Assembly (NCBI GenBank): GCA_000002445.1
Contig: AE017150.2
Coordinates: forward strand, 288,001 to 352,000
Direction of reading: 5' to 3'
Length of the DNA stretch: 64,000 nucleotides
Origin: Trypanosoma brucei
Taxonomy: Eukaryota
The notes below the pieces were generated by a model. It made no database searches and was not told where the DNA came from. It worked only from the letters and a program-made list of their open reading frames with translations. Within the stretch, counting starts at the first letter, position 1. Each line of letters starts with the position of its first letter. A program made the position numbers and the translations under genes. Below are positions 22,601 to 54,589 of the stretch, piece after piece.

Positions 22601-25600
22601 TGCTACCACCAATGAATCACCTGCTGCCGCTACATGCGTACCATGCTCTTGGTTTTCAAGGGGTGCACAGCGGCAGGGAGCGTTGCTCGAATCCGTCCTG
22701 TGTGACGTTAACTCCACAAGCGCAACCGGCGAGGGCCTTGCTATTTCAGGGCAGCCTCATTTCAGTATCAATCACGCTTCACTCCCTCACGGTAGACATC
22801 CAGCGGCTGTTCGTAAACTTCGCTTCGCCCATCAGATAAAACTCCCCCCTCTTTCCCATTCAGCGCCCACTAACTCCGCGATATCGCAGCCAGCACATCT
22901 GCCCTCCTCAGCGCTGGATATTTCACAATATTGCAACCCGGGGCTGACCCCTACGGTGCCCCTTTCCCTCTTTCCAAACCCTCGGTAGCGCACCCCCCTA
23001 CTGTTTTTTCCATAGCAGCAGTCAAACGCCAGAATGTTTTATACCGCATTCGCCTCAGTCATTTGCCACCGCGGACGGGGCCTGCGGAGAATATCTCCAC
23101 TCCCATTGGTCAGACCACATGTCAATATCTTCACAATTTCCCAGCGTACGCCGCTGCAGCGTATGCAACAGAAAAAAAAACTTTTGCAGGGCCCCGACTA
23201 ACTTTCACACAAGGGGTTGGGGCATAACATTGTGTTGGGCAGCCTCAGCTCGGACTGACAGCCCGATGCGATTAGAGCCACCAAAAGCTCGAAAATACGG
23301 ATTCCGTGACTAACGTAAGGGCAACCCGGACACCTCTGGTGCTTAACCGGTCCCCTCCCGGCGACCGGAATGACAAAGGTGGCATGTCAGTCCTTTGCAG
23401 CTGAATTCAGCATTGGTTGATTCCGACGTCGGTGGCAAAACAGCGCTCTCCACATAAATAATTTATCCATCTCCCGATCTGCGTCGGAAATGTAGGGGGC
23501 TGGACAGCGTTACCACACTGAGCCGACCGTAATTACAAAGGAGCACTTCGTATGGGTTCCCACTGGCATCGATCGGCATTTCCGATTTTGTTTTGTTCTT
23601 CATGTGCTGCCAGGGGACTGGCGACGGCGTTCGCCCCCGGTGAATATGGCTGCTGCGCCGTACGGCCGGCGAGCCGGCGATATTGAAGGGGCTTCTGCGG
23701 GGCCACCATGAGGTCACTCACGTTTTTTTTTTTTAAATGGGGAAGAAACCGAATTACTCACTTCAGTTTCAGTACTTCTGTTTCCCGCTTTCTGCAAGAT
23801 GGGACGCTATGCCCAAGACCTGTGGCTCCAAGGTATCGCGTAGGGGCTTTTGGCTAGGGATGCGATTAGAAGAAGTACGGGAGCCGGACTTGGTGCGAAA
23901 GGATTCTCACGGGATCGCGTTGAATACTGCCCCGTCACCGACCATCGAACCGCCGTTCACCACTTGCTTTTTTCTTTTTCCCCATGGATGTCAGGGTCCC
24001 TGCAGCGCATGAGTTTGTGACTGTGTGTGTGTCTGTGTCGCTCACGTCTAATGGTGTGGAGTCAACGGGATGACCTTCACGATTACTTCAATATCTCTGT
24101 CTGGGCTTTAATGTAAGTTTTTTCCCTGTTGAGCTGCTTACCAAAGACGGCGCATACGATTGTGGCGTCTTTGCTAACGCAAGACATTTCTGAAAGGTGG
24201 GTTCTTGGCACTTCTTGCGCGACCGCAACTTGATCCTTACGAAGTTGATTTTTTTTTTTCCAGCCGCTGCATTCAATGGCGTCTGAGCGGCTTAGTTACG
24301 GAGCGGATAAGTGATGGTGGTGAACATTTGGGCCATTGGCCGTTGCTGCACAACTTTATTTGCACACTGAGAGTTGCCCAACGCATTATGCCCGCACTGG
24401 CACGCAATGAGACCATGTGGGATTGAAGAAAACGACAACAACAAAAACGCCGAAGTTCCCCTCTCTGGTGTAACATGGTTTAACATGAGTTGATTAGTGT
24501 CCCGGAGGATTTACAGTTATAACGATATTGTGGTGCTTACCTTTCCTCCAGAGCAAACTCGACAAAAACTGTTCATGTTTGGGTCTCTGTGACGTGGATG
24601 GAGTGTTCGTAAGCATATGGAAGCTGATGAAAAGGCTGTTGACAATATCAACGGTGACGTGACACTTTGTGTGAGCAGAAAGGAATTCCAATTTAAACTA
24701 AAACCAGGCCAACCAAACGATTTCTGGGGCCCGCACGGGTGATTGTTGACACTAAAGGCGGAATCAGTCGGGCGCTAAAGGATATATATTTTCTTTTTAC
24801 CGAAGGTCTGTAAGAAATGATGGGGCAGAAACGAGGTACACTGCTACCGTGCACACATTTAACCAGTTGACGCCAAGATAACTAAATGATGTCATAAAGT
24901 TTCTGCATGATAGCCTGTAATGTGTTGTGTGGAAACGACTCACTACGGATGCACAATCGTAAGCAACACTCGGTTCTTTATCGGAGGTTAAGCTGTGCTG
25001 CATATACATATGAATTGGTTACATGCTAGCTTATGCGGTTATTTTCCTATTTTTTGAGGACCAATATAAAAATGAAAAGACCACTCAGGGGATGACCGTG
25101 TCTGCGTGAGCCGTTGCGGGTTATCAGAGGCTTGGAAGCAATTTACCATGTTATCGGCGTGTGGTATCGCGTACACATGTGTATAAATGAGCTGTATGCA
25201 AGTGGAGCTATACCGAAACAGAAGTCTGAAAGATATTGTGAATCACTTTCCCCCCTTTGATATTGTGTGGTTGATCTACGTGAGTCTGAGGATACTTGGG
25301 ATTTCAGTGCTGCCATTGTAAAAGTTTGGATTGTCAGCAGCTTTTAAATGAATGCTGAAAAAACAGAGGGTATGGTGGGTACGTGACATGCTGCAAACTT
25401 GTGTTTGTGACGGTAGGGAGAGTGGTGCACACTGACAGGTGACATCAACGTGTTCACATCAACTCTCCAACTCGATACGTTGCTCGCGTTGTGAAGGGAT
25501 GCTTCTCACATGAAGTGACGGGGTAATTGTTAGACAAAAGGGAGGTGATGACTCCATTTCGGTATGTTTTTTCTTTTGGACGCAAACTGATCAACCAATA

Positions 25601-27688
25601 AGAATGACACGCGCACATTCTTCTGAAGCAGAAGCTTCAGTGGCAAGTTGGTTTCCATCCCCCAATGATAGAATGGGGCGCCCTCCGAAGACACACTGCT
25701 GTTTTTTTAAACAGTATGCCGATCTAAGCGCGCACTGCAGGTACATGATGTGCTGAATAAAGGTTCAAGTTTCATTAGAAAAAAAGATCAATACTAGCAA
25801 AAAAAGTGGCTTCAGCAACGCTGACAACTATGATGTTTTAGAAAGCAGCGGCATGGTCGGTGAAACGGACTACAGCGCACGACACGTAGATGCGTGGAAA
25901 AGGTAAGACCGGAAATTAGTCGTTTTCTGTTAAAACACCCCCCTTTTGTGTGTTAGCAGCGGACGCAAAACCATCTATTCGGGTGCGAGACGTAGTGAGC
26001 CGACAAACAGGTTTCCACTCGGTATGCCCCAAGAGCAGGATTTTTTTTTCGATTTCTTACAAGAAACTCCCACAATGAGACATGCCGCGTGCCGTTAGCT
26101 GCTGATAAGAATTGTATTAATCCCGATTAGAATTCTGGATCTGCTGTATGAGAGTCCGAATCGTGTTCTCCAGTATCTCACGTGTTAATGAGAGAGAGAT
26201 TTGTATACCGGAACCCTATGAATATATGTGTGAATGTGTATGTGTGTATTAATGTGCTACAGCAGTGTACAAACCTATGGAAGTCTCATGGTGAAAATGT
26301 GAACGGACAAGAACAGACACCGGTGGTGTTGTTGCTGCTTCCTGCATCAATACATCTTTGACTTGACCTAACAGGAGACGGACACTGGAAAGTTGGAGCA
26401 TGCTGTGGAATCGTAAGGGGCTTTGCACCGCAGCGGAAGAACACATGAAAGGGTCCGATGTATTATATTTCATACAAAAACCTACGGATTTTTTTTGGAG
26501 GATATGCTGTGACACCCTTTCTAAGGTGAGGAGGAGGAGGAAGTAGTAGCAACAAGCGGCACAACACCAGCACGCGCAGGAACCAGTTATCACTCATTTT
26601 TATGTATTATTACTTGCGTATGACCGCACTGACCAGCCGCTGAGGAAAGACTGTTGCAAAGTGTTCGATAACTTTGGTTTCCTTGTGAGGTGAATGAGAC
26701 ATTATTTGCTTTGCCTACCATTCGAAAGCAAAATAATGTTTAGGTGAGTGTATGCATGCACCGTGGCATCCCAGCTTCTGATATCGTCTCCTTGCCTATC
26801 TGTACCAAACGTCGACGCACGTGAAACCACCGCTGAAGGGGGATACGGGTGATCTACATTAAGGTGATGATGAAACGACTCTCCCCCCGTGCAGTTGCTG
26901 TTCTCGGGGAGTGGCGCTGGTAATGTATTCGATAGAATCTATTTATCAGAAACCGATGCGTTGCCAACCATAAACACTCAGCGCTCCCCCAAAAAGAGGG
27001 AGTGAAGTCGGCAAGAATCTCAGTGTTGTTGCCTTGGGGTGAAGCCATTAGAATAATCAACCCTAACCCTCATGCTCTCCAAATCTGGGGGATGAGGTGT
27101 GTGGTTGAAAAGGGATTCTAGCTGACTGGATGCACAAAGTCATGTTGTTCCACCAAATGTAACGAACACACGCGCACTCGTTCATTTATTTGCTAACAGC
27201 ATCTAATAGGTCTTTTAGTACATACAAAGTCTTCAGGCAGTTCGATTTAGACATATATGTACATGTTGCGCACTTACCAGTTTGTAAAGAGTGGGCTGCC
27301 ACCAATTTTGAAAGATTGTTGACTCTTAAAACCAAAGACTGGGAAGTGTTGTTCCACTACTTGACAAGTCTGACACCGCACTCGTAGGACGATAGTGTCT
27401 TTTTTAACACTGCGAGGTAGCAGCATCGTTACCTTGTGGTTGCCCTCGGCTTTTGTTAAATGCATTTCCAGTGTTTGTGCACCGGCGTTGCCACGCGAAG
27501 GGTTTACCTTCTCGTGTTTATGTCAATACTTGCGTTGGAATCGGGTGCTAACTGTTGTGCGAGACTAACTGCCACCCCCCCCAAAGAAAAGTACATATAT
27601 TTGCGCTTTCGTTGCTCCTTCATTCAAGTCATCCGGTCAAAGGACAACCCATAAGTTCACTGCTGTAGAATTAGTTCCTACCGCACAC
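19604..27688. promoter_or_regulatory. Divergent strand-switch region, a putative bidirectional Pol II transcription start zone of about 8 kb with no convincing ORF
   Basis: Genes to the left are on the - strand and genes to the right are on the + strand. Only short overlapping ORFs lie in between. In kinetoplastids such divergent strand-switch regions are the sites where polycistronic transcription starts. Confidence 0.5.
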
Positions 27689-28714
27689 ATGTTGTCGCGC
27701 ACCTTTTTTGCAGCTCAGAGGAAGATACCGTTCTATCCTGTCAATCCAAGCAACCCACTTGTGTATTTTGATATTTCCATTGGCTCCCAGAAGGCTGGAA
27801 GGGTAGAAATGGAGCTCTTCAAGGATGTGGTACCGAAAACGGCGGAGAATTTCCGTGCATTATGTACAGGTGAAAAGGGCCTGGGACGATCTGGCAAGGC
27901 ATTGTCGTACAAGGGAAGCAAGTTCCATCGCGTCATCCCTCAGTTCATGTGTCAGGGAGGAGACTTCACGAGCGGTAACGGTACGGGTGGAGAGTCAATA
28001 TACGGATTGAAATTTCCCGATGAGTCCTTCGCGGGCCGCGCTGGGAAGCACTTTGGTCCCGGGACGCTCTCCATGGCAAATGCAGGCCGCAACACAAATG
28101 GATCGCAATTCTTCATCTGCACAGCTGCAACTCCCTGGTTGGATGGGAAACATGTTGTTTTTGGACAAGTAACGAAGGGATACGAAGTCATTGAGAAGGT
28201 TGAAACCAACGGCAGCCAGTCAGGTGCCACACGTCAGCCCATCACCATCATGGATTGTGGCCAAATTGAACAGGGATAAGGGCATTCTCAGGAAGTTAAC
28301 AACGGCTGTTACGGTTGTGGTAACTGTGTTAAAAAGTACGCGAGCTTTTTTGTTTTTTTTTCACTTAGGACTGTGATCAAGTTCGATTGTGTGTTGCCTC
28401 GTTATTTCCTTCCCCATCTGCGCAGGTTCCTTCGCCTTGCATGTGGCAGCGCACCTCTGACCTCCTGGTGTTTCCAGTGGCTGGTTTCCTGCGGGAGTTT
28501 CAATGCACCTCTCAATCTCTTTCTCCTACCTCCCTTTTTCTTTAACCCAGTAGCATTAGTTTAAATAATGAATATAATATCGGTCTGTCGTGCCTATCAC
28601 TTGTGGCACTACTGAAACAACACTCACTTCCTACTTCGGGGGGGGGGGGGTTCTGCTCCTCCACCACGTGAGTCACCGTGAGCGGTAAACCCGTAATTTG
28701 CTGCGCGACTTCGG
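27413..28714. repeat. Right arm of the inverted repeat
   Basis: This arm is the reverse complement of 16238-17553. Confidence 0.9.
27689..28279 (+). CDS. Cyclophilin-type peptidyl-prolyl cis-trans isomerase, 196 aa, inverted duplicate
   Basis: The protein is identical to the minus-strand copy. The cyclophilin motifs are as listed for that copy. Confidence 0.9.
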
Positions 28715-29224: not shown

Positions 29225-31513
29225 ATGCTTGTCGGGGTGCTTGTTTTGTACATCCTGTGCGCACCGCTCGCTGCTGTCGGAAGCATTGCAAAGTACAGTA
29301 AGACTGTCGTGACCAAAAGGCGGCTGAGAGGCGACGATGACACGTGGACGCGATATAAACCCACACCACCAGGGGCGCAACGTCTATTTGATAGTTTAGA
29401 TGAAAATACGCCCCTTCCCAAACTTCCCATTAAAACTCCGTTCTTCAGTTACGACAGTGTCGAATGGTACGTTTCTCCTTATGGGTTCCTCACCCTCACG
29501 GCGGTTCCCATGTGCAACTCGTTCTGCAGGGAGGGTTTGGATTCACCACTCACTGGCAGCTATCGGTTTGCCCGAAGGAATATTTCTGAGGGCGGTGACT
29601 GGCCGTTAATTGGGCTATTTGTTGCTGACCTTGATGTAACGAATTTGGCAGGGGATGCAGGCGTATACTATTACACACTGGATGGTGAAGAAAACCCCAC
29701 GAAGGTGATCGTGGAATATAGAGACATCCCCGTCCTGAATTGCCATGCTGACGGCAACGAACTACTGACCGCACAGGTTGAAATTTCAACCGATGGAGTT
29801 ATTGTAGCACGCTATGAAAAGGTTCCAAGATGCCGAGGCTCCGTGGGCATCGTGTTGTCGAAGAGCCAGCGAGATATCGTACAGTTTAGGCAACGCGAAA
29901 TGGGTCTCGTCGCGGTACAGTATACTCCCGTTCCTGATACCTGTGGAGAGCGGAACGAAGGATCATGTTCTGAGACGTGTACGTGGTGTGCAGCAACAAG
30001 TAGCTGCATGTCGGCGCCACTTGCAGGTGAAATATGCCCGAGAGTGTCTTCGAATAGTTCGTTAAATCATAACCACTATTACACCGTTACCGCAAAGACG
30101 GAATCAGGGAGCACCCAAGGAGGCCAGTCAGGGGGTGAGCCACTGGATACCACCGGTAGCAGTGTGAAAGTTCCCCTTCGTTTTGAGTTTCCTTTCTTCA
30201 CAAAGGGTGTGGGGAAGCACAAAATAAATAGTGTGTATATACTCTCATCTGGAGTTGTTTCGCTACTCTCCAACAAGCAAGACTGTGGTCCACTGAAGAA
30301 TGTGTGCAGCAACGGAAATTACAGCTATGCCATCATGCCATTTGTTACGTCTCAAACATGGGGCAATTCAAACGCGGTGGTTTTGAGAAGAGAAAGCGAA
30401 TCCATTACCATTTTCATAACGACTAGATCCTTCGGTGAGCTATACCACACGTACACGTATTGGTTGCGCCTTGAAAAGAGCGGTGCTATCACGTTTCACT
30501 ATCTGGCGTCTACTGTAGCAGGGTCGAGAGAAGCTTTGAGTGGGTTTTTCGCGTTCCCCCCACCGATGATTGGAGTCGCTCGTTACGGTATGGGCGATAA
30601 TGCAAGCATGATCGTTCCTTCCGCAGTGGCACGTCCAGGCACCACTGTGCGCTTCGAACCCCGGAATGAGCACGACGACTGTGGAATCAACGGGAGGTAT
30701 GAAAATGGAGGGTGTGTGTGTTCAGAAGGATTCCAAGGTAACTTCTGCGATGATTGCACTTCAGGTCATTATGGACCCAGGTGTACCAAATGCCCCAACT
30801 GCCAGAATGGGGGTGTATGCGACAGTGGCCGAGGTGGATCGGGCCGTTGCAAGTGCGCATCCTCTTTTGGTGGGAAAAACTGCGAAAAGAATTGCGGGAA
30901 CAAGGGTTGCGTGAACTGCAATTCTGTGGGGGGCTACTGTGACTGCGGCGTCTGCCGCTGCCATGAGGATAGTGGATGGAGTGGTCCGGACTGTACCACC
31001 TTTGAAGATCCGTGCCTGAAATTCTCCCTTCAGGGTTGCGATGCCTGCATGAGTCAAGAAGAACACGGCTGTGCGTTTTGTGCTGATGGCGCGTGCTATT
31101 CTACGAAATTGGAGGGAACCTCGCTTAGCCATGCGTGTTCTTACAAGGCTGAGACCCGTGATGCTCCAATCTGTCAAAAAGTCCTGCAGATTGCGCAGTC
31201 CGGCACTGACTTTGGCTATATAATATTTTTCGTCTTATGCTTGAGCGCTATTTCACTCGCTGTCATCATATCCCTTCTATCGCGCTACCTGATGTATGCG
31301 CGGAGAGTGGTTAATGTCCACGTTGCCGCAGCTGCGGGAGGCGCTCCCGACTACGTTCCTGTTCGACGGGAGCGAGAAGTTGTGCAGGCTGGTTTTGTAC
31401 CAGTGAACTTACCCAAGGGTAAAAAGTACGTTTTGGGTGTCCCACTGAAGCAGATATCGCTTCACAAACTGTATAAGGAACAGCAGAATGAAGGGTTCCC
31501 TAACAAGGAATGA
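29225..31513 (+). CDS. Type I membrane protein with laminin-type EGF-like cysteine-rich repeats (paralogue 1), 762 aa
   Basis: An N-terminal signal peptide (MLVGVLVLYILCAPLAAVGS) is followed by a roughly 450-aa ectodomain. That leads into clustered Cys modules (CxCxxGFxGxxCDDC, HYGPRC, CKC..GKNC) and a PSI-like CDAC...CAFC..GAC segment. A TM helix (FGYIIFFVLCLSAISLAVIISLL) and a 90-aa cytoplasmic tail follow. Confidence 0.8.
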   Translation: MLVGVLVLYILCAPLAAVGSIAKYSKTVVTKRRLRGDDDTWTRYKPTPPGAQRLFDSLDENTPLPKLPIKTPFFSYDSVEWYVSPYGFLTLTAVPMCNSFCREGLDSPLTGSYRFARRNISEGGDWPLIGLFVADLDVTNLAGDAGVYYYTLDGEENPTKVIVEYRDIPVLNCHADGNELLTAQVEISTDGVIVARYEKVPRCRGSVGIVLSKSQRDIVQFRQREMGLVAVQYTPVPDTCGERNEGSCSETCTWCAATSSCMSAPLAGEICPRVSSNSSLNHNHYYTVTAKTESGSTQGGQSGGEPLDTTGSSVKVPLRFEFPFFTKGVGKHKINSVYILSSGVVSLLSNKQDCGPLKNVCSNGNYSYAIMPFVTSQTWGNSNAVVLRRESESITIFITTRSFGELYHTYTYWLRLEKSGAITFHYLASTVAGSREALSGFFAFPPPMIGVARYGMGDNASMIVPSAVARPGTTVRFEPRNEHDDCGINGRYENGGCVCSEGFQGNFCDDCTSGHYGPRCTKCPNCQNGGVCDSGRGGSGRCKCASSFGGKNCEKNCGNKGCVNCNSVGGYCDCGVCRCHEDSGWSGPDCTTFEDPCLKFSLQGCDACMSQEEHGCAFCADGACYSTKLEGTSLSHACSYKAETRDAPICQKVLQIAQSGTDFGYIIFFVLCLSAISLAVIISLLSRYLMYARRVVNVHVAAAAGGAPDYVPVRREREVVQAGFVPVNLPKGKKYVLGVPLKQISLHKLYKEQQNEGFPNKE

Positions 31514-33286
31514 CATCCACCCCTGGGTGCGCCGTTCCCAGAAGATGCTGAGGGCAGCGGTTCCCCACCAAAATCAGCTATATAAATTTCCCGCTGTGTA
31601 AGCGGCGCCCTCCCTATTGCCATATATTAAATTAATCTTGCTTTTGCGATGTGACAGCAACAGCTGATGTCGCGTGAGGCCCCAGCGTGGAAGAGAGAGT
31701 TGAACAACTTATCACTTAGAGGGGTGCCTTAGGTCTTGGAATCGGCGTATGGGATCGGCTAGCATATAAAAAGCCACTTGAATACCCTGTGTGTGTGTTT
31801 GGTGGTTATCACTTGGAGTCGTTGCTATGACCCCGGCGTTGGAAGTAGTTGCCTTCTTCCCGTTTGTATTATTGGCATAATGTTGTATATAGCGTTAAGG
31901 AAGATAGTACAGAAGCGACTGTGGTCTGAGTGGTGTCCGATGTAACTTTGGACGTCCGTGGTACCGACCCTTGCACACATCCAGTTGTCTGCGTATAACT
32001 GTGTGTCAAAGGGTTGCGGCACCCGGCTGCGCCTTGCTCCTGTGCACTTTCCGTAGTTTTATTCGGTTTGTCAGGAAAAATGATTGACGGAGGGGCTGCA
32101 CCGCGGCCGGATAACCATCACATTCAATGTGAGTCTCCCACACAACTTCTCAGGACAACTCAGAAGGCCCATTCCATAAGGTGGCATTTGTCTAAGATCA
32201 GCGCGTATAACCGAATCACAGGAGGTTATGAATCGAGTGATTTTGAGTCACTTGGTTTTCTGGTCACGGTCGTGACGTCAGCTTGTTCTGCTCTGGCGGT
32301 CTTAGGAAATGAACTAGCCCTAAAGCGTCGTGCCTGCTGTGGGATGCATATCGCACCCCCGCAAGTTCCCACGCCGCAGATACGTTAAGATCTATTTTAC
32401 GAGGGTATTCAGTTTGCTGAGCGGTGGTGGCTACTGCGATTGTGGCCAAGTCTGCATGACCTCCGGGGAGCTTCGATAACAGCAGGACCGTGCCTGGCGG
32501 ACAGCGTCTCGAGCACCTTCTGAAGGGGCCTTGTCAAATTCCTAAAACAGGGATATGTGAGTTGGGTTGTTTCTTATTAATGTGGCGGCCGCCGTTTCTT
32601 GCCGTGACAGGGTTTTGATGGGATTCTGTTTTCCGATGGAAAGGAGCATTACCGTTGCTGGCTCATAGGTGCAGTGACTCACCAAAACGAATAGGTACGA
32701 CTAAAGGAGGCGAAGCGGGAAGGCTGAATGTCGTTGACATTTTTTTGAGTTCCAGTACTTGGTGGCGTCAGAGTCTTTGAGTTTCCCCGTTTGGAGGAAA
32801 ATGTGAGCACTGTGGCAGTGTGTCAAGTTAGGTGGCGAATTTTCTTAGCATTTCCGACTCCTTTGTGTGTAAATGATGCTTTAGGTGTGGAAAGGAGTGT
32901 ATGCCTCTTCAACGCTCGGTGTTGTTGGCGACAACATTGGAGGTTGAACTGCAAGGGTCATACATACAGTGAAGCTTTGCCACCAATGGAGCCATCAGTG
33001 CCGCAGTGCCGCGCTGTTTGCCCGCACCCCCTTGGGTATGAGGTTTGTGCAAAAGTGCAGGTGGATGCGGCTCGCGTAAGAAAAAAACAGCCATGCACCT
33101 TTCCTATCAGACGAAAACAAAGGGTGTAACCTCAGATACCGTGGATAGAGTAATATGAAGGGGAACTCACGAGGCTGCGTTAGTACTTTTGTTGCATGGT
33201 ACCTTCTACCGTAACCCCAACTTTGTCTTGCTGTGATTTCTCCGCTTCTAATCCTGACAAGGCCCGTACATTGAAATATAGGAAAT

Positions 33287-33655
33287 ATGGACAGCAACGT
33301 CACTTACGCCGCACAACTTGAGAGCGCTGCAGAGGAGGTAGCCGAGGCGAAACAGTACCTCATAAAACTTGACAGGAGGCAGCACCAACTGAAGGAGGCG
33401 AGTCGAGCCCTAAAGAAAACACCAGTGTTGGGCGACGTTTGGCTGCTGTGCAGTGGGGGCGTCTTTGTGCGTTCTGAGTTGAAATACGAAGACACTCTGC
33501 GTTACTTGTCGTGGAAAATGGGCGCTGGTGAGCGAGACATTGAGGATTGTCGTGACGCTCTTAAGAGGAAGGTGGCATACTTGGCGGAGCTGGAGGGCCC
33601 CGATAACGCAATAGCAAAGCTGTACGAGGGCTTTGAACTGACCCCAGTGAATTAG
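33287..33655 (+). CDS. Small coiled-coil protein, 122 aa, possibly prefoldin-like or PDRG1-like
   Basis: This is a clean ORF in the rightward unit. The heptad-rich N and C termini flank a short beta-hairpin-like centre, DVWLLCSGGVFVR, the architecture of prefoldin beta-type subunits. The similarity is judged by eye only. Confidence 0.45.
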   Translation: MDSNVTYAAQLESAAEEVAEAKQYLIKLDRRQHQLKEASRALKKTPVLGDVWLLCSGGVFVRSELKYEDTLRYLSWKMGAGERDIEDCRDALKRKVAYLAELEGPDNAIAKLYEGFELTPVN

Positions 33656-33826
33656 TACCAATACGTTGCCTCCTTTTGAGACTTTTAAATTCCCTTATAC
33701 ACAACAAAATTGAGTAAGGGTATGCCTTGCGAACGTGCGTATTCCCGTGTTGCATTCAGGATTTTTCCTTGAGAGCGTCATCCAATCTTCTTTGCTCAAT
33801 TCTCCCCGTAGCAACTCAAAGGGCCC

Positions 33827-34639
33827 ATGAACACGGAGGACTCCTCCCTGTTTACCCTAAAATTTCTTTCTGTTAGGGCGGTTATTCATAGTTTGAGGTA
33901 TCTTTGTTCGCGGGACGCTAGCGTGAGGTTTGTTGTGTCCGTCGCCGGAGGTTCGCCAGAGGTACGCTTGACAAGGGTGGGAGTTCCAGACTACAGTTAC
34001 ACCGAAGTTGTTCTGAGAGCTGGAGACGCAGGGAAGAAGTGGAAAGAGGTTCAGCTCCACGACTCTAATGACGAAGATGTATTCTCATTTGTGATTCATG
34101 GACCGCTGCTTCTTCGCACCCTCCAGATGTTCGAACGGAGCAAACCCGTAAAGCTGGGGTTGTGCAGCGACTTGACAAGTATCTTTTTGTACTCCGATGG
34201 GTACGAACGCTGGGTGCGGCTTGGTGTTTTCCACGACCTTGGACCGATGCTCAACGTCAGGCAGCCAATATCCGCTTTACATCGCGTCGCCGACCTTCAA
34301 GCGTTCTGCCATATTGCGCGGTTTGTTAGGAATTCTCAGGATGGCACATGCGTTGTGGTTCTGGGTTTCGATAACATGAACTCCTTTATAGAGCTAAGGA
34401 CAACAGAGGCTATGGTGTCCGTCCTTCTTGATGGTGAGACTCTTCGGCGCCGTTATGAGGGCAGGGCGGGGAAAGAGGAAGTGACTGCGTTTGCTGAATA
34501 TGCATCCCGTGTGGCCGATGATGCCGTTCTTAGCGTTGGTTTTGGCACGGATGGATTGGCCGTGTTTCAGCTGAAATGGGGCGGCCCTCCGGCGCATTGT
34601 GAGGAATCATCTGCGTATTTGTATTTTTGTGCTATCTGA
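33827..34639 (+). CDS. Hypothetical protein, 270 aa, possibly a PCNA-fold sliding-clamp-like protein
   Basis: The ORF is in the unit orientation. Its size and its N-terminal pattern F-x-L-K-F-x5-V-x3-L-x2-L resemble PCNA/Hus1/Rad1-type clamp subunits. The family assignment is speculative. Confidence 0.45.
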   Translation: MNTEDSSLFTLKFLSVRAVIHSLRYLCSRDASVRFVVSVAGGSPEVRLTRVGVPDYSYTEVVLRAGDAGKKWKEVQLHDSNDEDVFSFVIHGPLLLRTLQMFERSKPVKLGLCSDLTSIFLYSDGYERWVRLGVFHDLGPMLNVRQPISALHRVADLQAFCHIARFVRNSQDGTCVVVLGFDNMNSFIELRTTEAMVSVLLDGETLRRRYEGRAGKEEVTAFAEYASRVADDAVLSVGFGTDGLAVFQLKWGGPPAHCEESSAYLYFCAI

Positions 34640-34756
34640 GTAACTTGCGCATGTAAATGTTCTTCCATTTGAGTTAGATGAAAATGCTTAAAGTAGTGTA
34701 AACATACTCGTATTCATGACTTTCCCCTTTCCTCTATCTTTTTGAATGACCCCTAA

Positions 34757-35380
34757 GTGAAAATGTCTCTAGGGAGTGCGCTTGCGCCAACCCACAATGT
34801 ATTGGTATGCCATTCGCCAGAGCTACCGCCGCAGCAAGTGCGTTGTGTAGCTGAATGCTACGGTGTAGTGTTGGATATTTCCTCGTACCACCTCGTTGAC
34901 AACACCGATCTTGTTAGCATCGTACAATATCGCGATCCAGAGAGCGTCGTGCTGTGCTACGAGTCTCTGAAAGCTCACATGTCGCAAAAGGGGTCTCCAG
35001 TCAAGAAGGTTGCCTGGGTCCATGCGAAGGCCACATCAGAGATATTACATAAGTCGTATATTCGGTGCCCGTATAAGGAGGAAGATACAGCTCCGACCAA
35101 CCATGCACACGGGTTTTTAGTGGCCTACCTTGGCGAGTTGGAAGACACCGTTCGCTCTCAGTTTCTTTGCTCGGTGAAAGCCGACACAAATGCGGTGGAC
35201 TTCTTCGTGGATACAGAATATAAAGGGAGGTGTTTTCTCCACTATCCTACTGTTGAGGCAGCTGAGGAGACACGTCGCGGCTTTTCCATGTGTCATCCCA
35301 GCTTGAGGAGGGCAATCCACCACTGTGACGAGGCTGATTATTTTAATGCGAGGAAGAAACAACTGCAAGTGGACAGATGA
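34757..35380 (+). CDS. Hypothetical protein, 207 aa
   Basis: The ORF is in the unit orientation and has a complex composition. I recognise no domain. The C-terminal KGRCFLHYPTVEAAEE segment is faintly RNP-like. Confidence 0.45.
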   Translation: MKMSLGSALAPTHNVLVCHSPELPPQQVRCVAECYGVVLDISSYHLVDNTDLVSIVQYRDPESVVLCYESLKAHMSQKGSPVKKVAWVHAKATSEILHKSYIRCPYKEEDTAPTNHAHGFLVAYLGELEDTVRSQFLCSVKADTNAVDFFVDTEYKGRCFLHYPTVEAAEETRRGFSMCHPSLRRAIHHCDEADYFNARKKQLQVDR

Positions 35381-36696
35381 CGTTTTTTTTTGATCATTGC
35401 CCAGAATTTGCTACTCTGGCGGTGAGTTTAGTTTGACACATTTTTATTTTAGCACTGTGGGTGGTAGTCTGGTCCTTTCTGTTGGTACTATTACTGGGAG
35501 GGGGAAGGGGGCTAGCGGTGATGAACATTGGGTTCTATATTTATCGACCCTATCAAGCAATACGCGTAATGCGGCACAAGAGCAAGTCGTTAGCCACACT
35601 GTTTGTTTTCTCCACTATTTCGCGGACGTCGCAGGTCGCCGGCAGCAGCTTTTTTTTTTTTTGGCTTCTGGTGGATATTACCGCTTGCGCGGTGTCCTTT
35701 GTGTTTTTTTCGTTGATGGTTTTCGACGCTGTTAGCTGCGGTGCTGCAGGTGCTACCTGTCTTTCCCCCACCTGAACCATTACACATCCAGTGGTTTATG
35801 AGCGCTTTACTTGGGTGCATTTGTACACGTTAGTTCGGGCTCATGTGTGAGTTAGGTGGGAATATTCTTTGCATTCAAGAACCCACACAACCCGTTTGAG
35901 ACTTTGACCCCGAAATTCTTGTTTAACGTCGTTTCGTGACATGTTCTCTTTGGCAGCTCGTAGCTTGAGGATTTCATTGCGTATCGGAGGAGATGTCCCC
36001 GTGGTTCCCATAATTTCACTTTTGTCAAAGAAAAGGTGTTTCACCACCTAAAACATCATATTTGCCATTATTGGATCTGCCTCAGCGTTGGTATGGTTTC
36101 AATACCGCAACCCCACGTGAGGAGACGAGATTTCTGGGCGGTGATTTTATTGATGCCAGGGCTGGCCCGCCTCCTCGACCCGCTCCGTTTCTACCAGATT
36201 GGTAAAGGCTAGAAGTGGTTTTATTATAAGGGGGACAGTATCAGGGGTTTTTCTTTTCTTTTACAAACAGCATATAACTACACTATGACCGTTATAGATG
36301 TCACTTTAACCCGTCGAGCCGCAACATAAGTGGTCCAGTGGGAGTTTGTTAGCCTCTTTGCACGATTGCTTTTGTGGTGAGAGTAGCGAATTCGTTGCAC
36401 ACCTTCTGCCCCCTCAAATGTTTTTGTAAAAGTGCGTAGGAACGTATAGTAGGATCAGTCAGTTCTTGTCTTCACTAATAATTATCCATGTGAGTTATCA
36501 CCTTATGTGTGTATTCTGTGTTTAGAGAGCTTGCAAAAGGTCCACGTTTTCTTGGATCAGACCATATGGCCGAGTTGAACGGCCCTTTTTATATCAGGGT
36601 TTCGTGTTTAAATACCCCTGTTTGTGCTGTAGGCATTAGTGCCGTCGCTTGACGGCATCCCCTAGTGCAATTATTGTAAATGCTGTTTACCATTTC

Positions 36697-36790
36697 TCAG
36701 AGAGAACGACAGAACCAAAGTCAAGATAGTCCCTTTACTTTTACTCACTCATCTGACCGTGAGTGATAAAGTTTCCCGTGTCTCTATTGT
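36697..36790 (+). pseudogene. Orphan 3' fragment of an EGF-like membrane protein gene, encoding ...QRERQNQSQDSPFTFTHSSDRE*
   Basis: This stretch is identical to the 3' end of CDS 37391-39799 but is preceded by unrelated sequence. Confidence 0.7.
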
Positions 36791-37312
36791 GCAATGAATC
36801 CTCGCAATGCTTCACGGCATGATTTGTGGGAGTCTCACCCGAAATGTTGCGACCTGTGAGTGGCCCCCGTAATCTGCGGTTTTCTGTTCAACGGGAGTGT
36901 AACTAATCCCAACGTTGTGTGGTTTTATTTATTTTTTACATCTCTTTTTAACCCTCCGCTGCTTTCTGCAGAAGATGCACTCGGGACTCGTTTAGTTTGG
37001 TCTAACCACCTTTCTTTCTCTTTTTTACTTTGTTCCCCTTTACTTACTTTTGTTTGATTGTATCGGCTACAGATGGTGACACCTCCTCTCAATGTATTTA
37101 GCGGGAGTGCGGTGCTACCTTCTTTTTGATGATGACTGGTACTTACACACATGGTAGCTGGCCATAGGCTTGTTGTTAGGGTGTAATTTCCATGACGAGC
37201 GGCTATTGTTAAATTCACCTTCCTGTCCATTTTTTTTCTCATCAATTCACTCAACTGTTGGCTTTCTTTCCTTTTTGCAAAATCCGTTGTGTGTACAGAC
37301 TCACTCCCACAC

Positions 37313-37382
37313 TTCTTATGTTCTTTCCCTTTTTCTTTCCTTATTTTCTCTTATTTTCCCTTGTTATCTTTTGCATTTTAAG
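37313..37382 (+). promoter_or_regulatory. Polypyrimidine tract plus AG, a putative trans-splice acceptor for the downstream EGF-like gene
   Basis: A roughly 65-nt C/T-rich run (ttctttccctttttctttccttattttctcttattttcccttgttatcttttgc) is followed by AG at 37381-37382, 9 nt before the ATG. Confidence 0.5.
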
Positions 37383-37390
37383 TTATCGAA

Positions 37391-39799
37391 ATGAGTATTC
37401 TGTGGCTTACTTGTATCGTTGTAGTTGCAACAAATGTTGCTTCTGGTCGTGCTGCTATAGTGGGATATGAGACTGAGATTGTGCGTGCAGGTGATTTTAG
37501 CAAAGGTTCGTACCATTGGGCAAAATACATCGAAGGAACCGGACCGAATACCCGTCGCATATCTTCCTTTCGTGATGGAATTGTACACCATGAGGAACTC
37601 GGCTTCATGTCACCATTTTTTAGCAGTGATAACATAAGTTGGCATGTTTCACCATTTGGATTCCTAACGTCTCTATCGTTTCCCCCATGTTCATCATCTT
37701 GTGTGAGAACCACACTTCGCTCACTGCGTAAACAAAGTGAGCAACCCAAGAGCAGTGACCGTTTCTTGCCAATGATCGGAGTGTACGTTGCAGATTTTAG
37801 TCCTTTCACTAAAGTGTTTACTTTTAAAACGCGGTACCCAAACGATGAACGCGCAGAGAGTGGGGGATGCCACATAGTGGAATATAGAAGTATGCTGATG
37901 CATGGTTGCAGCTCCAGCGAAAAGAGTAGACTGAAAGCACAGGTGGAGGTTTGCTCTGACGGATTGATAGTGATGCGTTACAGAGAGGTGCCGAAGTGTG
38001 GTCCTGTTTCTGTGGGCATTGCATTGTCTGCAAGAGAGCAAAACTTTACATTTATCGACTCAGACCTTGAGGATATTGTTGCCATACGTTACAGCCCCGT
38101 CCACGACAACTGCAGTAAGTTCAGTACTAACCGAAGTTGCAATGATATGCACGGAAGGTGTAAGTGGCATGAGACTACGGACGAATGCGTGGATGAATCA
38201 GTCGCAAAAAGTAGATCTCCCCGCCGGACGCGCAGTGAATCAATACCAGCATCTAATGAATACTACGATCTAAAAGTCTCGCGCAGTTCCCGCAATGTAG
38301 ACTACGACGACCTCCAGAAGCACTTCAAATTGCTTACAGTGGGAAAAGTTGTTGGACTTGACCTAGGGTTTAGTTTCCCATTCTTTGCTAGGGATCAGCC
38401 GAATCTCCGCACGAATAGGGTGTACATACACTCATCTGGTGTAATTTCACTTTTTTCTGAGAAGCAAAACTGCAAGCCAGTCCGAAACATGTGCCCTAAT
38501 GGAGATTACAGCTTTGCCATTATGCCGTTTGTCACACCGCAGACTTGGGCGAGTAGAACGTCGGTTGAATACAGTCCACTTGGAAAACGGGTAAAGGGGG
38601 ATCCATTCTGTAATGATTCCCACTGTCTGGAGGGAATTGCCATTCGTGTATCAAGCCGGACGTACGACTTGTCCCTTCACAAATATCAACATATTGTATA
38701 CCTTGACCAAAGTGGCGCCATCGAGTTTCGATACAGTGAAGGTATTGAAACCTTTTTAGTGTTGACTGGTAAGGAGTTTTCTGCTGTTCCGCCACCATAC
38801 ATTGGAATATCTCGGTCCGGTATAAATGATAAAAACACCATTATTGTTCCTCCATCCCTTATAGGTGAGGACAAGCAGGTTCGTTTTGACACCTCACAGA
38901 GCTGCAGCCACTGTGGAGCCAATGGACGATGCGTCTCTCCAACAGGGAAATGTGAATGTTTTGAAGGGCATATTGGGAAGTTCTGTGAGGAGTGCTCTCC
39001 AGGCCATTACGGTCCGAGTTGTATTAAATGCCGGAAGTGCGAGAACGGAGGGACTTGTGACGACGGTAGAAAAGGATCTGGGGGGTGCAAATGCATGGGA
39101 ATGTTCAGTGGAGAGAATTGCACCACGAAGTGCGCCAATTCGTTTGACTGCAGTAATTGCAACCTCCATGGGGGGTACTGCGAATGCGGCACTTGCCATT
39201 GCTATGGAACGAATGGCTGGAGTGGAGAAAACTGCAGCGTTTTTCAAGACCCCTGCCAGCGACTGTCGTTTGGGGGTTGTAAGGTGTGCCTAAACGACAC
39301 GGCCAACGAATGTGCCTTCTGCAGCGATTGGATGTGTTATTCGAAGCGCTTGAAAGGGACAATGAATGAATACCATTGCCCCGGTAATATATTCGATGAG
39401 GACCCGTCACTTTGCTTACCCCTGCCGCAGCCGGATGCGCCAATGAAGGAAAACGGCATTGCTATACCTCTTGGTCTTTCATTGTGCGCTCTTTTTTTGG
39501 CCTGCGTTACGTTGATTCTACTCCGATTTGTCCTTTTGACGAGGGGAATCGTTAACTTTCTTGATGTGGGTGCTGCGGGAGGTGCCCCAAGTCATGTTCC
39601 CGCACGCCGCGAGAGAGAAGTGGTACAATTTACGTTCATACCGCGTGCAGCAGCGGAAGGAAAGAAGTATGTACTTGGGATTCCGCTGAAGCAGATACCA
39701 TTGCAAAAACTATACAATTATCAGGAGGCTCAGAGAGAACGACAGAACCAAAGTCAAGATAGTCCCTTTACTTTTACTCACTCATCTGACCGTGAGTGA
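37391..39799 (+). CDS. Type I membrane protein with laminin-type EGF-like cysteine-rich repeats (paralogue 2), 802 aa
   Basis: The architecture matches paralogue 1: a signal peptide, a conserved N-domain (WHVSPFGFL, VYIHSSGVISLFSEKQNC, AIMPFVTPQTW), EGF/PSI-like Cys modules, a TM helix and a conserved tail (GGAPSHVPARREREVVQ...GKKYVLGIPLKQIPLQKLY). Overall identity to paralogue 1 is about 35-40%. Confidence 0.85.
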   Translation: MSILWLTCIVVVATNVASGRAAIVGYETEIVRAGDFSKGSYHWAKYIEGTGPNTRRISSFRDGIVHHEELGFMSPFFSSDNISWHVSPFGFLTSLSFPPCSSSCVRTTLRSLRKQSEQPKSSDRFLPMIGVYVADFSPFTKVFTFKTRYPNDERAESGGCHIVEYRSMLMHGCSSSEKSRLKAQVEVCSDGLIVMRYREVPKCGPVSVGIALSAREQNFTFIDSDLEDIVAIRYSPVHDNCSKFSTNRSCNDMHGRCKWHETTDECVDESVAKSRSPRRTRSESIPASNEYYDLKVSRSSRNVDYDDLQKHFKLLTVGKVVGLDLGFSFPFFARDQPNLRTNRVYIHSSGVISLFSEKQNCKPVRNMCPNGDYSFAIMPFVTPQTWASRTSVEYSPLGKRVKGDPFCNDSHCLEGIAIRVSSRTYDLSLHKYQHIVYLDQSGAIEFRYSEGIETFLVLTGKEFSAVPPPYIGISRSGINDKNTIIVPPSLIGEDKQVRFDTSQSCSHCGANGRCVSPTGKCECFEGHIGKFCEECSPGHYGPSCIKCRKCENGGTCDDGRKGSGGCKCMGMFSGENCTTKCANSFDCSNCNLHGGYCECGTCHCYGTNGWSGENCSVFQDPCQRLSFGGCKVCLNDTANECAFCSDWMCYSKRLKGTMNEYHCPGNIFDEDPSLCLPLPQPDAPMKENGIAIPLGLSLCALFLACVTLILLRFVLLTRGIVNFLDVGAAGGAPSHVPARREREVVQFTFIPRAAAEGKKYVLGIPLKQIPLQKLYNYQEAQRERQNQSQDSPFTFTHSSDRE

Positions 39800-40687
39800 T
39801 AAAGTTTCCCGTGTCTCTTTTATTGTGCAATGAATCCTCGCAATGCTTCACGGCATGATTTGTGGGAGTCTCAGCCGAAATGTTGCGACCTGTGAGTGGC
39901 CCCCGTAATCTGCGGTTTTCTGTTCAACGGGAGTGTAACTAATCCCAACGTTGTGTGGTTTTATTTATTTTTTACATCTCTTTTTAACCCTCCGCTGCTT
40001 TCTGCAGAAGATGCACTCGGGACTCGTTTAGTTTGGTCTAACCACCTTTCTTTCTCTTTTTTACTTTGTTCCCCTTTACTTACTTTTGTTTGATTGTATC
40101 GGCTACAGATGGTGACACCTCCTCTCAATGTATTTAGCGGGAGTGCGGTGCTACCTTCTTTTTGATGATGACTGGTACTTACACACATGGTAGCTGGCCA
40201 TAGGCTTGTTGTTAGGGTGTAATTTCCATGACGAGCGGCTATTGTTAAATTCACCTTCCTGTCCATTTTTTTTCTCATCAATTCACTCAACTGTTGGCTT
40301 TCTTTCCTTTTTGCAAAATCCGTTGTGTGTACAGACTCACTCCCACACTTCTTATGTTCTTTCCCTTTTTCTTTCCTTATTTTCTCTTATTTTCCCTTGT
40401 TATCTTTTGCATTTTAAGTTATCGAAATGAATATTCTGTGGCTTACTTGTATCGTTGTAGTTGCAACAAATGTTGCTTCTGGTCGTGCTGCTATAGTGGG
40501 ATATGAGACTGAGATTGTGCGTGCAGGTGATGTTAGCAAAGGTTCGTACCATTGGGCAAAATACATCGAAGGAACCGGACCGAATACCCGTCGCATATCT
40601 TCCTTTCGTGATGGAATTGTACACCATGAGGAACTCGGCTTCATGTCACCATTTTTTAGCAGTGATAACATAAGTTGGCATGTGACT
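39731..40687 (+). repeat. Downstream copy of the roughly 955-bp direct repeat
   Basis: See the entry for 36697-37651. Confidence 0.9.
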
Positions 40688-40705
40688 ACTCCCTTCAGTG
40701 AATGA
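40427..40705 (+). pseudogene. Truncated 5' fragment (92 codons) of an EGF-like membrane protein gene
   Basis: This copies the first about 87 codons of 37391-39799 with three substitutions (S2N, F36V, and divergence after WHV). Homology ends at about 40687 and a stop follows. Confidence 0.75.
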
Positions 40706-40957: not shown

Positions 40958-42346
40958 TTGGGCCGACCCATTGGTGCGATGCGTCGTCACCGCGTGGCGG
41001 TGGTTTCGGACTTTTTCTACCCGGGGTTTGGTGGTGTGGAGGTGCACATTTATAGTTTGGGGCAGTGTCTTATGCGTAGGGGCCACAAGGTTATTGTCAT
41101 TACTAGGGCTTACGGTGACACATGTGGTGTGCGGTATTTGACGAATGGAATGAAGGTGTATTATTTACCTCTGATGGCTGTTAAGCTTCCTGCGGGATCT
41201 GTTACGCTTCCAACCATGTATTTGACTTTCGCAACAATGCGGTCTATATTCATCCGAGAGCGCATTACAGTTGTTCACGGGCACCAAAACACGTCGAACC
41301 TCTGCCATGAGGCACTATTTCATGCCGGTACGCTGGGTCTTAAAACGTGTTTTACCGACCACTCGCTGTTTGGTTTTGCGGACGTGTCATCGATTCACAT
41401 CAACAAAGTGTGCGAGTGGAGTTTGCGCAACGTTGACCAGGTTATTTGTGTGAGTAACACCTCGAGAGAAAACACGGTGCTACGGGCGAAAATCGATCCG
41501 CAACGTGTCAGCGTTATACCAAACGCGACTGATTGTTCCTTTTTTACACCGCCGGATGATATGAAGTACAAATCATGGGCGTCGAAGGTTGAGAATGAGG
41601 GGCTAACGATTGTTGTGATTGGTCGCTTAGTTTACCGTAAGGGTTCTGACCTTTTTGTGGATGTGATTCCTGAAATATGCAAACGGCATCCGAACATAAG
41701 GTGGATTGTTGGGGGTGATGGTCCCCGTAGGTCGCAGTTTCAACAGATGATTGAACGGCATGACTTGATGGATCGTGTGAAGATGTTAGGTTCGCTACCT
41801 CACTCTGGGGTGCGTAATGTGCTGATACAGGGGCAAATATTTCTGAATTGCAGCTTAACTGAAGCTTTTTGTATCGCACTGATTGAGGCCGCATCATGTG
41901 GTTTGTTATGTGTTTCCACTCGTGTTGGTGGTGTGCCTGAAGTCCTGCCTCCCAACATGCTCTTGCTTGCGGAACCCGATCCATCTTCCATCATTACAAC
42001 ACTGGAGGAAGCTATTGCCAGTGTTCCATATATTTCTCCGTGGGAGCTGCACGACAATGTGAGGAGGTTCTATAGGTGGGATTGGGTTGCAGAGCGTACA
42101 GAGAGAGTGTATGATAAGATTATGTGCACCAAATCACCGTCTCTGTATGAAAGACTAATGAACTATGCATCGGTGGGCTGCGTGTACGGTGTCATTTGTT
42201 GGTTGTTGTGTATTGGTGACTGGTTGATGCTAACTTTTCTGGAGTTTTGGTTTCCGTCGGAGTTGATTGATATTGCACCAGATTTTCCACTGGAGTTGTA
42301 CTCTCGTAACCGGGAGAAGCTTCAAGTTGTGGGAAGCCCATCCTGA
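40958..42346 (+). CDS. GPI3: Phosphatidylinositol N-acetylglucosaminyltransferase catalytic subunit (PIG-A/GPI3), the first step of GPI anchor synthesis
   Basis: The GT4 PIG-A signature VVSDFFYPGFGGVEVHIYSLGQCLMRRGHKVIVIT is present near the N-terminus. There is a C-terminal hydrophobic region. The start codon could instead be the internal Met at codon 8. Confidence 0.85.
   Translation: MGRPIGAMRRHRVAVVSDFFYPGFGGVEVHIYSLGQCLMRRGHKVIVITRAYGDTCGVRYLTNGMKVYYLPLMAVKLPAGSVTLPTMYLTFATMRSIFIRERITVVHGHQNTSNLCHEALFHAGTLGLKTCFTDHSLFGFADVSSIHINKVCEWSLRNVDQVICVSNTSRENTVLRAKIDPQRVSVIPNATDCSFFTPPDDMKYKSWASKVENEGLTIVVIGRLVYRKGSDLFVDVIPEICKRHPNIRWIVGGDGPRRSQFQQMIERHDLMDRVKMLGSLPHSGVRNVLIQGQIFLNCSLTEAFCIALIEAASCGLLCVSTRVGGVPEVLPPNMLLLAEPDPSSIITTLEEAIASVPYISPWELHDNVRRFYRWDWVAERTERVYDKIMCTKSPSLYERLMNYASVGCVYGVICWLLCIGDWLMLTFLEFWFPSELIDIAPDFPLELYSRNREKLQVVGSPS

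Positions 42347-54542: not shown

Positions 54543-54546
<4 letters not shown>

Positions 54547-54586
<40 letters not shown>
54547..54586. repeat. (TG)n microsatellite, about 20 units
   Basis: Read directly from the sequence. It lies within the 3.4 kb low-complexity intergenic/UTR region 53674-57062. Confidence 0.9.

Positions 54587-54589
<3 letters not shown>

Follow-up and report, generated by a model that had tools for sequence, protein, structure and literature searches.

ESP10 of Trypanosoma brucei and its old paralogue: a Euglenozoa-wide family of predicted type I membrane proteins with a NIDO-like head, an EGF/PSI-like stalk and a conserved bipartite tail

A window of 64,000 nucleotides from Trypanosoma brucei (contig AE017150.2, positions 288,001 to 352,000 of the forward strand), placed by 100% protein matches on chromosome 2 of T. 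brucei brucei TREU927, contains two open reading frames (ORFs) for cysteine-rich membrane proteins. Paralogue 1 is the published protein ESP10, and paralogue 2 is a diverged relative with database entries only. The locus raises two questions. Firstly, how does a trypanosome come to possess what the initial annotation, made from the letters alone, called an unusual metazoan-like ectodomain? Secondly, what is the conserved cytoplasmic tail for? The answer that we consider fairly probable is that ESP10 and its old paralogue belong to a Euglenozoa-wide family of type I proteins, with a NIDO-like head, an EGF/PSI stalk and a tail that docks a conserved partner at the flagellar pocket. Coordinates within the window are collected in Table 1; residue numbers are those of paralogue 1 unless stated otherwise.

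Both genes are already annotated, and ESP10 is already named, proteomically validated and localised, with its EGF-like nature recorded in UniProt and in the literature. The gene ID Tb927.2.1700 is tied to the name ESP10 (PMC11732084; PMC4587319 supplement), while the earlier name FS133 stems, according to the passage on it in PMC4587319, from a flagellum-surface proteome aimed at signalling proteins (Oberholzer et al., 2011). ESP10 was recovered in the bloodstream-form surface proteome with 242 peptide-spectrum matches and 34 peptides, amounting to 54% coverage and 14.9-fold enrichment, and its fusion to superfolder green fluorescent protein (ESP10-sfGFP) was seen in T. brucei at the flagellar pocket alone, a pattern shown by only four ESPs, this one included (Gadelha et al., 2015, PMC4587319). 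The T. congolense homologue was also localised to the pocket region (PMC7870057). The protein is described as "TMD, EGF-like domain", TMD being a transmembrane domain (PMC11732084). Paralogue 2 (Q585S4) carries the database names "hypothetical protein, conserved" and "EGF-like domain-containing protein". Literature queries under the guessed IDs Tb927.2.1740-1770 returned no paper on it, and it is absent from the surface-proteome tables searched, in which no other Tb927.2.17xx or 18xx ID occurs. In searchable papers and database names ESP10 is described only as 'hypothetical, TMD, EGF-like domain'; neither there nor in the annotation did we find a mention of the paired NIDO-like domains of the head, of homologues in euglenids and prokinetoplastids, or of the bipartite tail motif lacking canonical sorting signals.

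The two proteins align end to end in BLASTP with 37% identity and 52% positives over 782 columns (E 2e-168). The ORF coordinates given by the initial annotation were correct, and the conserved blocks that it quoted (WYVSPYGFL/WHVSPFGFL, VYI(L/H)SSGV(V/I)SL..KQ(D/N)C, AIMPFVT(S/P)QTW, the Cys-rich C..C..GF.G.FC..C..GHYGP.C.KC..C.NGG.CD, CxxC..CAFC and AAGGAP..VP.RREREVVQ..GKKYVLG.PLKQI.L.KLY of the tail) are all present in this alignment. Its claim of a shared architecture, consisting of a signal peptide, a large N-domain, EGF-like and PSI-like modules, a transmembrane (TM) helix and a tail, is likewise borne out by the alignment, by hydropathy and by a published signal peptide prediction. The layout in both proteins is a signal peptide, NIDO-like subdomain A, a PSI-like module, a short low-complexity linker, NIDO-like subdomain B, three EGF-like modules, a second PSI-like module, the TM helix and a tail of ~70 residues. 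The part preceding the EGF-like modules, hereafter the N-region, spans ~450-460 residues in both. In paralogue 2 the N-region occupies residues about 65-503, the Cys-rich part residues about 504-672 and the TM helix residues 689-716. Each protein has a hydrophobic N-terminus and a single strong C-terminal hydrophobic segment, and for ESP10 the published probability of a signal peptide is 0.997 (PMC4587319 supplement); a signal peptide combined with a single C-terminal TM segment predicts a type I topology for both. The AlphaFold model of paralogue 1 has a predicted local distance difference test score (pLDDT) of 81.9 over the full length. The model of the N-region reaches a pLDDT of 88.5 and a predicted template modelling score (pTM) of 0.88, and is all-beta.

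The N-region, in which no domain had been named, appears from profile comparisons to consist of two copies of a distant NIDO-like domain, duplicated within the protein. Local hhalign found residues 62-236 (subdomain A) homologous to residues 306-482 (subdomain B) with a probability of 98.7% and an E-value of 2e-16 over 160 columns. The link to NIDO passes through a bridging set of seven proteins (P0053, P0061, P0063, P0064, P0066, P0067 and P0070), which were the weakest library matches of the N-region profile. These proteins contain one to four copies of a ~130-residue domain with the pattern FPFFG...VSSNGFLTF...(I/V)APLWxDL...IVEYxxV...TFQVxLxxxGxIExRY. The family profile of the N-region matched P0061 and P0066 at library-wide E-values of 5e-7 and 2.9e-5, respectively, and the same two proteins exceed the gathering cutoff of 25 bits for Pfam NIDO (PF06119), with 28.1 and 36.8 bits, on the residues matched by the hidden Markov models of the subdomains. 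Pfam NIDO was matched by nine of the 13 bridging segments and was the sole family to recur among them. When the bridging segments were aligned and compared with the subdomains in hhalign, subdomain A was matched with 99.7% probability (E 3e-25) and subdomain B with 98.5% (E 1.5e-15). In addition, the family member from the euglenid Entosiphon (P0046) has a direct NIDO match inside subdomain A, under the cutoff (18.3 bits, E 0.0025).

Several other searches gave no support to this assignment. Pfam NIDO (PF06119/SMART SM00539, cutoff 25 bits) was matched neither by the two paralogues nor by consensus sequences of subdomains A and B, and the PDB fold libraries searched held no NIDO-like structure. 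The N-region profile had no match (0) among PDB sequences, the bridging domain is not covered by any NCBIfam model, and a homologue search for annotated NIDO proteins with the NIDO-type segment of P0066 returned one fragment only. The failures with PDB and with the consensus sequences are consistent with the statement that, as of 2014, NIDO was without a known structure or structural homologue (PMC4227867). Since the homology is transitive and a direct Pfam match is missing, we use the label NIDO-like rather than NIDO: subdomains A and B are regarded as homologous to the domain through profile evidence, not as members of the Pfam family. The assignment gives a first structural handle on about 60% of the ESP10 ectodomain.

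The animal proteins with NIDO domains (nidogen G1, MUC4, alpha-tectorin and SNED1; PF06119) resemble the trypanosome proteins in having an extracellular, beta-rich domain of ~150 residues combined with EGF modules, and in the pattern FPFF...(S/T)xNGFLSF...(I/V)APxWxDL...xIVEYxxV...TFQVxLxxxGxIxxxY. The trypanosome proteins differ from them in carrying two copies with a PSI knot between them, both enlarged by Cys-containing insertions, in being membrane-anchored with a conserved tail, and in lacking the partner domains AMOP, vWD, G2 and ZP. Among the bridging and related proteins two further arrangements were observed. P0055 (1103 aa) and P0067 (682 aa), both from eukaryotes, consist of repeated units of a NIDO-like domain and a PSI module, P0055 having four such units followed by a TM helix; because of this, the NIDO-like/PSI pairing of ESP10 may be a reusable cassette found outside Euglenozoa as well. 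P0053 (2367 aa), P0061 (1188 aa) and P0070 (457 aa) are Cys-poor, with one to four NIDO-type domains beside Calx-beta, CARDB or BACON/Ig-like domains. By their domain content we infer that the latter proteins look prokaryotic, and the NIDO-type fold family would therefore not be restricted to animals.

The Cys-rich half is easier to place at the level of the family than in the two proteins themselves. Cysteine spacing divides it in paralogue 1 into a short EGF module with four Cys (483-509), a laminin-type EGF module with eight Cys (510-552), an 8-Cys module with the integrin-type CxCGxCxC signature (556-590) and an 8-Cys PSI-like module (597-650). In Pfam searches the two proteins fell just under the curated cutoffs, paralogue 1 with EGF_Teneurin at 24.0 bits against 24.3 and paralogue 2 with EGF_2 at 20.9 against 22.1. 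Across 36 family members, EGF_2 and EGF_Teneurin were matched in 22, EGF_laminin in 20 and EGF in eight, with a best E-value of 1.4e-8. Members over the cutoffs include P0045 (EGF_2, 26.8), P0017 (EGF_laminin, 24.3) and P0046 (EGF_STAB1-2, 41). The Cys-rich segment of paralogue 1 also matches EGF modules of DLK1, Notch1 and factors VII and X among PDB sequences, from E 6.6e-4. Invariant or nearly invariant in the EGF block are the cysteines C486, C497, C499, C520, C523, C526, C532, C542, C562, C565, C572, C577, C579 and C590 and the glycines G535, G538, G540, G584 and G587, so that the 6- or 8-Cys EGF-like spacing with a Gly/aromatic core is in place. The assignment to EGF by domain search thus stands for the family (22/36) and is marginal for the two proteins. 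As for the three to four laminin-type modules originally claimed, their EGF character was upheld at the family level by Pfam and PDB matches, while laminin spacing fails in two of the three modules. As for PSI, an 8-Cys C..C..C..C.(W/F)C..C pattern is present. Pfam PSI (PF01437, cutoff 23.1 bits) was unmatched by either paralogue, and the four of 36 members that matched it did so under the cutoff (best E 0.0024). Because no match reached this cutoff, and the evidence consists of the 8-Cys pattern and weak Foldseek matches to the integrin beta leg, the modules are named PSI-like only.

An artefactual explanation, namely that the Cys-rich region is an unrelated low-complexity pattern and paralogue 2 a decaying copy, has in its favour that the Pfam scores lie just under cutoffs, that truncated copies flank paralogue 2 and that paralogue 2 is missing from the surface-proteome tables. 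We regard it as extremely improbable. Its first half is effectively refuted by the recurrent EGF families, some of them over cutoff, by the invariant Cys columns and by the high-confidence model. Its second half is rejected since paralogue 2 is an intact ORF of 802 codons, in which every conserved block is kept; T. b. gambiense also keeps the gene, and the tree described below gives it an orthologue in T. congolense.

Two groups of known proteins resemble ESP10 in the Cys-rich half. A Foldseek search with the full model of paralogue 1 gave as best matches the PSI/I-EGF leg of integrin beta2 and Notch EGF11-13, all weak, with none at E <=1e-3. The integrin beta leg (PSI, four I-EGF modules, TM helix and short tail) is the best of these, although weak (4nen_B, E 2e-3; 2p28_B, E 4.9e-3). 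It shares with ESP10 a disulphide-rich stalk of PSI/I-EGF type that adjoins the only TM helix, as well as a short tail in which docking motifs are conserved, and one ESP10 module bears the CxCGxCxC signature of I-EGF. Unlike integrin beta, ESP10 has no beta-I or hybrid domain and no known alpha-subunit partner, its PSI-like module follows the EGFs, and NPxY occurs in only one of 33 family tails. Attractin, stabilin, MEGF/SREC and teneurin are also type I membrane proteins, and the module CxxGxYGxxCxxCxxCxNGGxCDxGxxGxGxCxC fits the profiles EGF_laminin, EGF_STAB1-2, EGF_LMN_ATRN and EGF_Teneurin. ESP10 differs from these in its far fewer (only three) EGF modules, its different head domains and its unrelated tail.

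The distribution of the family was determined by an exhaustive profile search with the N-region alone; word-indexed searches with the full-length proteins gave only two to three proteins, probably because EGF words saturated the candidates. The profile found 67 cluster representatives at E <=1e-3, of which 38 were at <=1e-30. Trypanosomatid members come from T. brucei subspecies, T. equiperdum, T. congolense, T. cruzi, T. melophagium, T. rangeli, Leishmania donovani, L. infantum and Angomonas deanei. Full-length members with the same tail were found in the free-living prokinetoplastids Papus ankaliazontas and Apiculatamorpha spiralis and in the euglenids Entosiphon sulcatum and Rhabdomonas costata. 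The family is thus Euglenozoa-wide; presence across kinetoplastids was a check suggested from the outset, and the euglenids extend it. Homologues in free-living prokinetoplastids and in euglenids make the family older than trypanosomatid parasitism. This bears on the idea that the set of metazoan-type modules was gained from an animal host by horizontal transfer. EGF, PSI and NIDO are indeed best known from animal matrix and adhesion proteins, and the top matches are animal ones (integrin beta, Notch, DLK1), but the full-length homologues with the same tail in Papus, Apiculatamorpha, Entosiphon and Rhabdomonas, together with the lack of a close animal homologue among the 67 representatives, make such a transfer hardly credible, and it was rejected on the age of the family. 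The picture of an unusual metazoan-like ectodomain in a trypanosome does not hold either: the family is at home in prokinetoplastids and euglenids, and the largest part of the ectodomain is of a NIDO-like type that occurs also in the prokaryotic-looking Cys-poor proteins.

The age of the duplication within the family was addressed by a bootstrapped neighbour-joining tree of 344 columns, a simple method with only moderate support at the node joining both pairs of African trypanosome sequences. Paralogue 1 grouped with one T. congolense copy (99.5%) and paralogue 2 with a partial T. congolense copy, CCD14565.1 (100%). The two African pairs came together at 77.5% and all Trypanosoma at 98.5%, with T. 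cruzi and T. melophagium as a sister pair. Since each paralogue groups with its own T. congolense copy, the duplication is placed on the African-trypanosome stem, before the split of T. brucei and T. congolense, as far as such a tree can tell. An old duplication, as suggested initially from the low identity, agrees with both the 37% identity and the tree.

Cytoplasmic tails were compared over the 33 family members that keep one. They contain two fixed blocks, RRER-E-V-V and V-x-G-[IV]-P-L-x-Q-[IV]-x-L-x-x-L-Y. In addition to the residues listed in Table 1, block 2 retains V736 in 28, G738 in 29, L746 in 29 and Y750 in 18 of the tails. R717, L741 and Q743 are among the very few positions other than Cys and Gly that are at least 90% conserved in the whole protein. 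The tail had been described as far better conserved than the ectodomain. This is correct for the pair of paralogues, where the tail core is 69% identical against 34-41% at non-Cys positions of the ectodomain domains. It is not correct for the family, in which the tail is only among the best conserved parts: the majority fraction over 36 members is 0.45-0.47 for the tail, 0.51 for the EGF block and 0.44 for subdomain A. The related suggestion that the tail is under constraint is supported by R717 and Q743, invariant in 33 of 33 tails and fixed in their spacing.

The nature of the constraint is less readily read from known signals. Canonical sorting signals are neither aligned nor conserved: YxxPhi occurs in nine of the 33 tails, [DE]xxxL[LIM] in one and NPx[YF] in one, and Y710-V-P-V of paralogue 1 is replaced by H-V-P-A in paralogue 2. 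The proposal of a YxxPhi or di-leucine sorting signal is therefore not supported. The model has little confidence in the tail (pLDDT 39-60), where residues 746-757 form a short helix; this is typical of a linear motif that would fold on binding. We favour such a docking motif for a conserved pocket partner, and two other functions have been weighed against it.

The first is turnover: as a degron, or as the place where a ubiquitin ligase or the TUSK deubiquitinase machinery docks, the tail would mainly set surface abundance and would not be a localisation signal. ESP10 falls to 0.55 on knockdown of SkpZ, part of the TUSK deubiquitinase complex, within a sensitive cohort that includes ISG75, ESP9, ESP11 and ESP14 and is read as reversibly ubiquitylated TM proteins (PMC11732084); the T. 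brucei tails do contain four to seven lysines. However, the T. cruzi tail has zero lysine and position 742 varies between K, R and Q across the family, so what the motif conserves cannot be lysine ubiquitylation. The remaining members of the TUSK-sensitive cohort belong to unrelated families. Turnover as the role of the motif we consider unlikely. The second is signalling, with ESP10 as a true receptor whose tail is phospho-regulated or binds an effector and reports a ligand of the ectodomain. The receptor-like layout would suit this, as would the first recovery of FS133 in a proteome directed at signalling proteins, so far as PMC4587319 recounts it, and position 745 is S in 13 of the tails. 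Yet there is no invariant Ser, Thr or Tyr among the 33 tails (745 is P in 15, and Y750 is found in only 18) and the tail has no enzymatic domain. Judged on its sequence features, a signalling role seems quite improbable.

A docking function fits into the following model, in which the family would comprise pocket-resident receptor or adhesion-type proteins with tails binding a conserved cytosolic partner; this function we infer only. The two NIDO-like domains and the PSI knot between them would form one compact head, as the pTM of the N-region model suggests. The head would be a ligand- or matrix-binding module, possibly a glycan-binding one, a hint that comes from weak supersandwich similarity only. 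A stalk of EGF-like and PSI-like modules, made rigid by disulphides, would lift the head above the pocket membrane in the fashion of the integrin beta leg. The bipartite tail would act as a linear motif to which a cytosolic partner, just as old as the tail, docks, and this partner would retain ESP10 in the flagellar pocket membrane or recycle it there, the pocket being present in kinetoplastids and euglenids alike. Paralogue 2 would most likely do the same job with a different ligand or at a different life-cycle stage. One may go further and propose that the bipartite tail is the first defined cis-acting signal for targeting to, or retention in, the flagellar pocket, read by a factor dating back to the ancestor of kinetoplastids and euglenids, and that the tandem NIDO-like head is an ancient ligand- or matrix-binding module of the pocket lumen. 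This proposal is tentative and, taken as a whole, rather unlikely.

As a finding of a genome scan the genes themselves are ordinary, being annotated and partly characterised; the tail motif is an experimental handle on pocket targeting. All endocytosis and exocytosis take place at the flagellar pocket, which is also a target zone for drugs and vaccines. How trypanosome proteins are confined to it is a standing question, for which the tail offers a concrete small target, its motif being short, with invariant residues that persist from euglenids to T. brucei. No sorting motif common to pocket proteins was found by Gadelha et al. (2015, PMC4587319).

Table 1. Features of the two genes and of the flanking repeat, in coordinates of the 64,000-nucleotide window; residue (aa) numbers refer to the respective protein.
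Feature	Position	Strand	Remarks
Paralogue 1, ESP10/FS133/Tb927.2.1700 (XP_951506.1, Q585S0)	29225..31513	+	762-aa ORF; 100% identity to database protein
Predicted signal peptide, paralogue 1 (aa 1 to about 19)	29225..29281	+	Hydrophobic N-terminus; published probability 0.997
NIDO-like subdomain A, paralogue 1 (aa about 62-236)	29408..29932	+	hhalign against bridging NIDO alignment A4 99.7%, E 3e-25; all-beta, high pLDDT
PSI-like module 1, paralogue 1 (aa 237-275)	29933..30049	+	C240/C248/C252/C255/C261/C271 invariant or nearly so; Cys pattern by eye; Pfam PSI weak in family
NIDO-like subdomain B, paralogue 1 (aa about 306-482)	30140..30670	+	hhalign A against B 98.7%, E 2e-16; B against A4 98.5%, E 1.5e-15
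Three EGF-like modules, paralogue 1 (aa 483-592)	30671..31000	+	Pfam matches; PDB sequence matches; weak Foldseek matches
PSI-like module 2, paralogue 1 (aa 593-650, 8 Cys)	31001..31174	+	Cys pattern by eye; Pfam PSI at equivalent position of P0041 (E 0.035); PSI in 4/36 members
TM helix, paralogue 1 (aa 663-690)	31211..31294	+	Hydropathy peak 2.92; helix 663-692 in AlphaFold model
Tail block 1, RREREVV, paralogue 1 (aa 714-720)	31364..31384	+	R717 in 33/33; fixed ~24 residues after TM helix
Tail block 2, VLGVPLKQISLHKLY, paralogue 1 (aa 736-750)	31430..31474	+	Q743 33/33, L741 32/33, P740 31/33, L749 31/33; 19-24 residues past block 1
Paralogue 2 (XP_951510.1, Q585S4)	37391..39799	+	802-aa ORF, architecture as paralogue 1
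Tail block 1, RREREVV, paralogue 2 (aa 739-745)	39605..39625	+	
Tail block 2, VLGIPLKQIPLQKLY, paralogue 2 (aa 761-775)	39671..39715	+	
Upstream copy of 955-bp direct repeat	36696..37647	+	3' stump of lost upstream copy (36696-36766), intergenic, first 257 nt of paralogue 2
Downstream copy of repeat	39729..40683	+	Last 71 nt of paralogue 2, intergenic, 5' stump of further copy (92-aa ORF 40427-40705)

Recent tandem remnants had been noticed around paralogue 2, and they are confirmed as a direct repeat of 955 bp with 99.4% identity, the tandem unit measuring 3,033 bp and being present 1.3 times. The 92-aa stump protein (P0044) recurs in the annotations of T. b. gambiense and T. equiperdum, where it is listed as a pseudogene or 'T. 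brucei spp.-specific protein'. An assembly artefact was rejected on this ground, and the repeat is taken as a genuine feature of the locus. A 165-aa antisense ORF over the 5' end of paralogue 2 (37378-37875, minus strand) is most likely spurious.

The gene neighbourhood is what one expects of an ordinary polycistron on a core chromosome, with a cyclophilin (27689-28279), a DUF7881 protein (33827-34639), PIG-A/GPI3 (40958-42346), DNA polymerase delta, an ISWI-type SNF2 ATPase and a CDPK-like kinase. The DUF7881 gene, which lies between the paralogues, matches PF25365 and PF25363 (E 6e-56 and 5e-50, respectively), and the adjoining ORF of 207 aa (34757-35380) has no Pfam match. Between the gene for the CDPK-like kinase (51808-53673) and an ORF at 57063-58475, the GC content falls to 0.307 with a GC skew of +0.29 (54001-56000). 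At the other end of the window, positions 2384-10393 are occupied by an 8-kb tandem array of a 29-bp unit, AAGCATGTCATTACGTGTTTTATGTGCAA, in 276.6 copies with 92% matches; this array accounts for the overlapping 'ORFs' in multiple frames at 2388-9728 and for a dip in GC to about 0.33. ORFs of at least 200 aa lie on the minus strand at 16670-19603 and on the plus strand from 27689 onward, and this change of strand suggests a divergent strand-switch region, possibly a polycistron start, within about 19600-27600.

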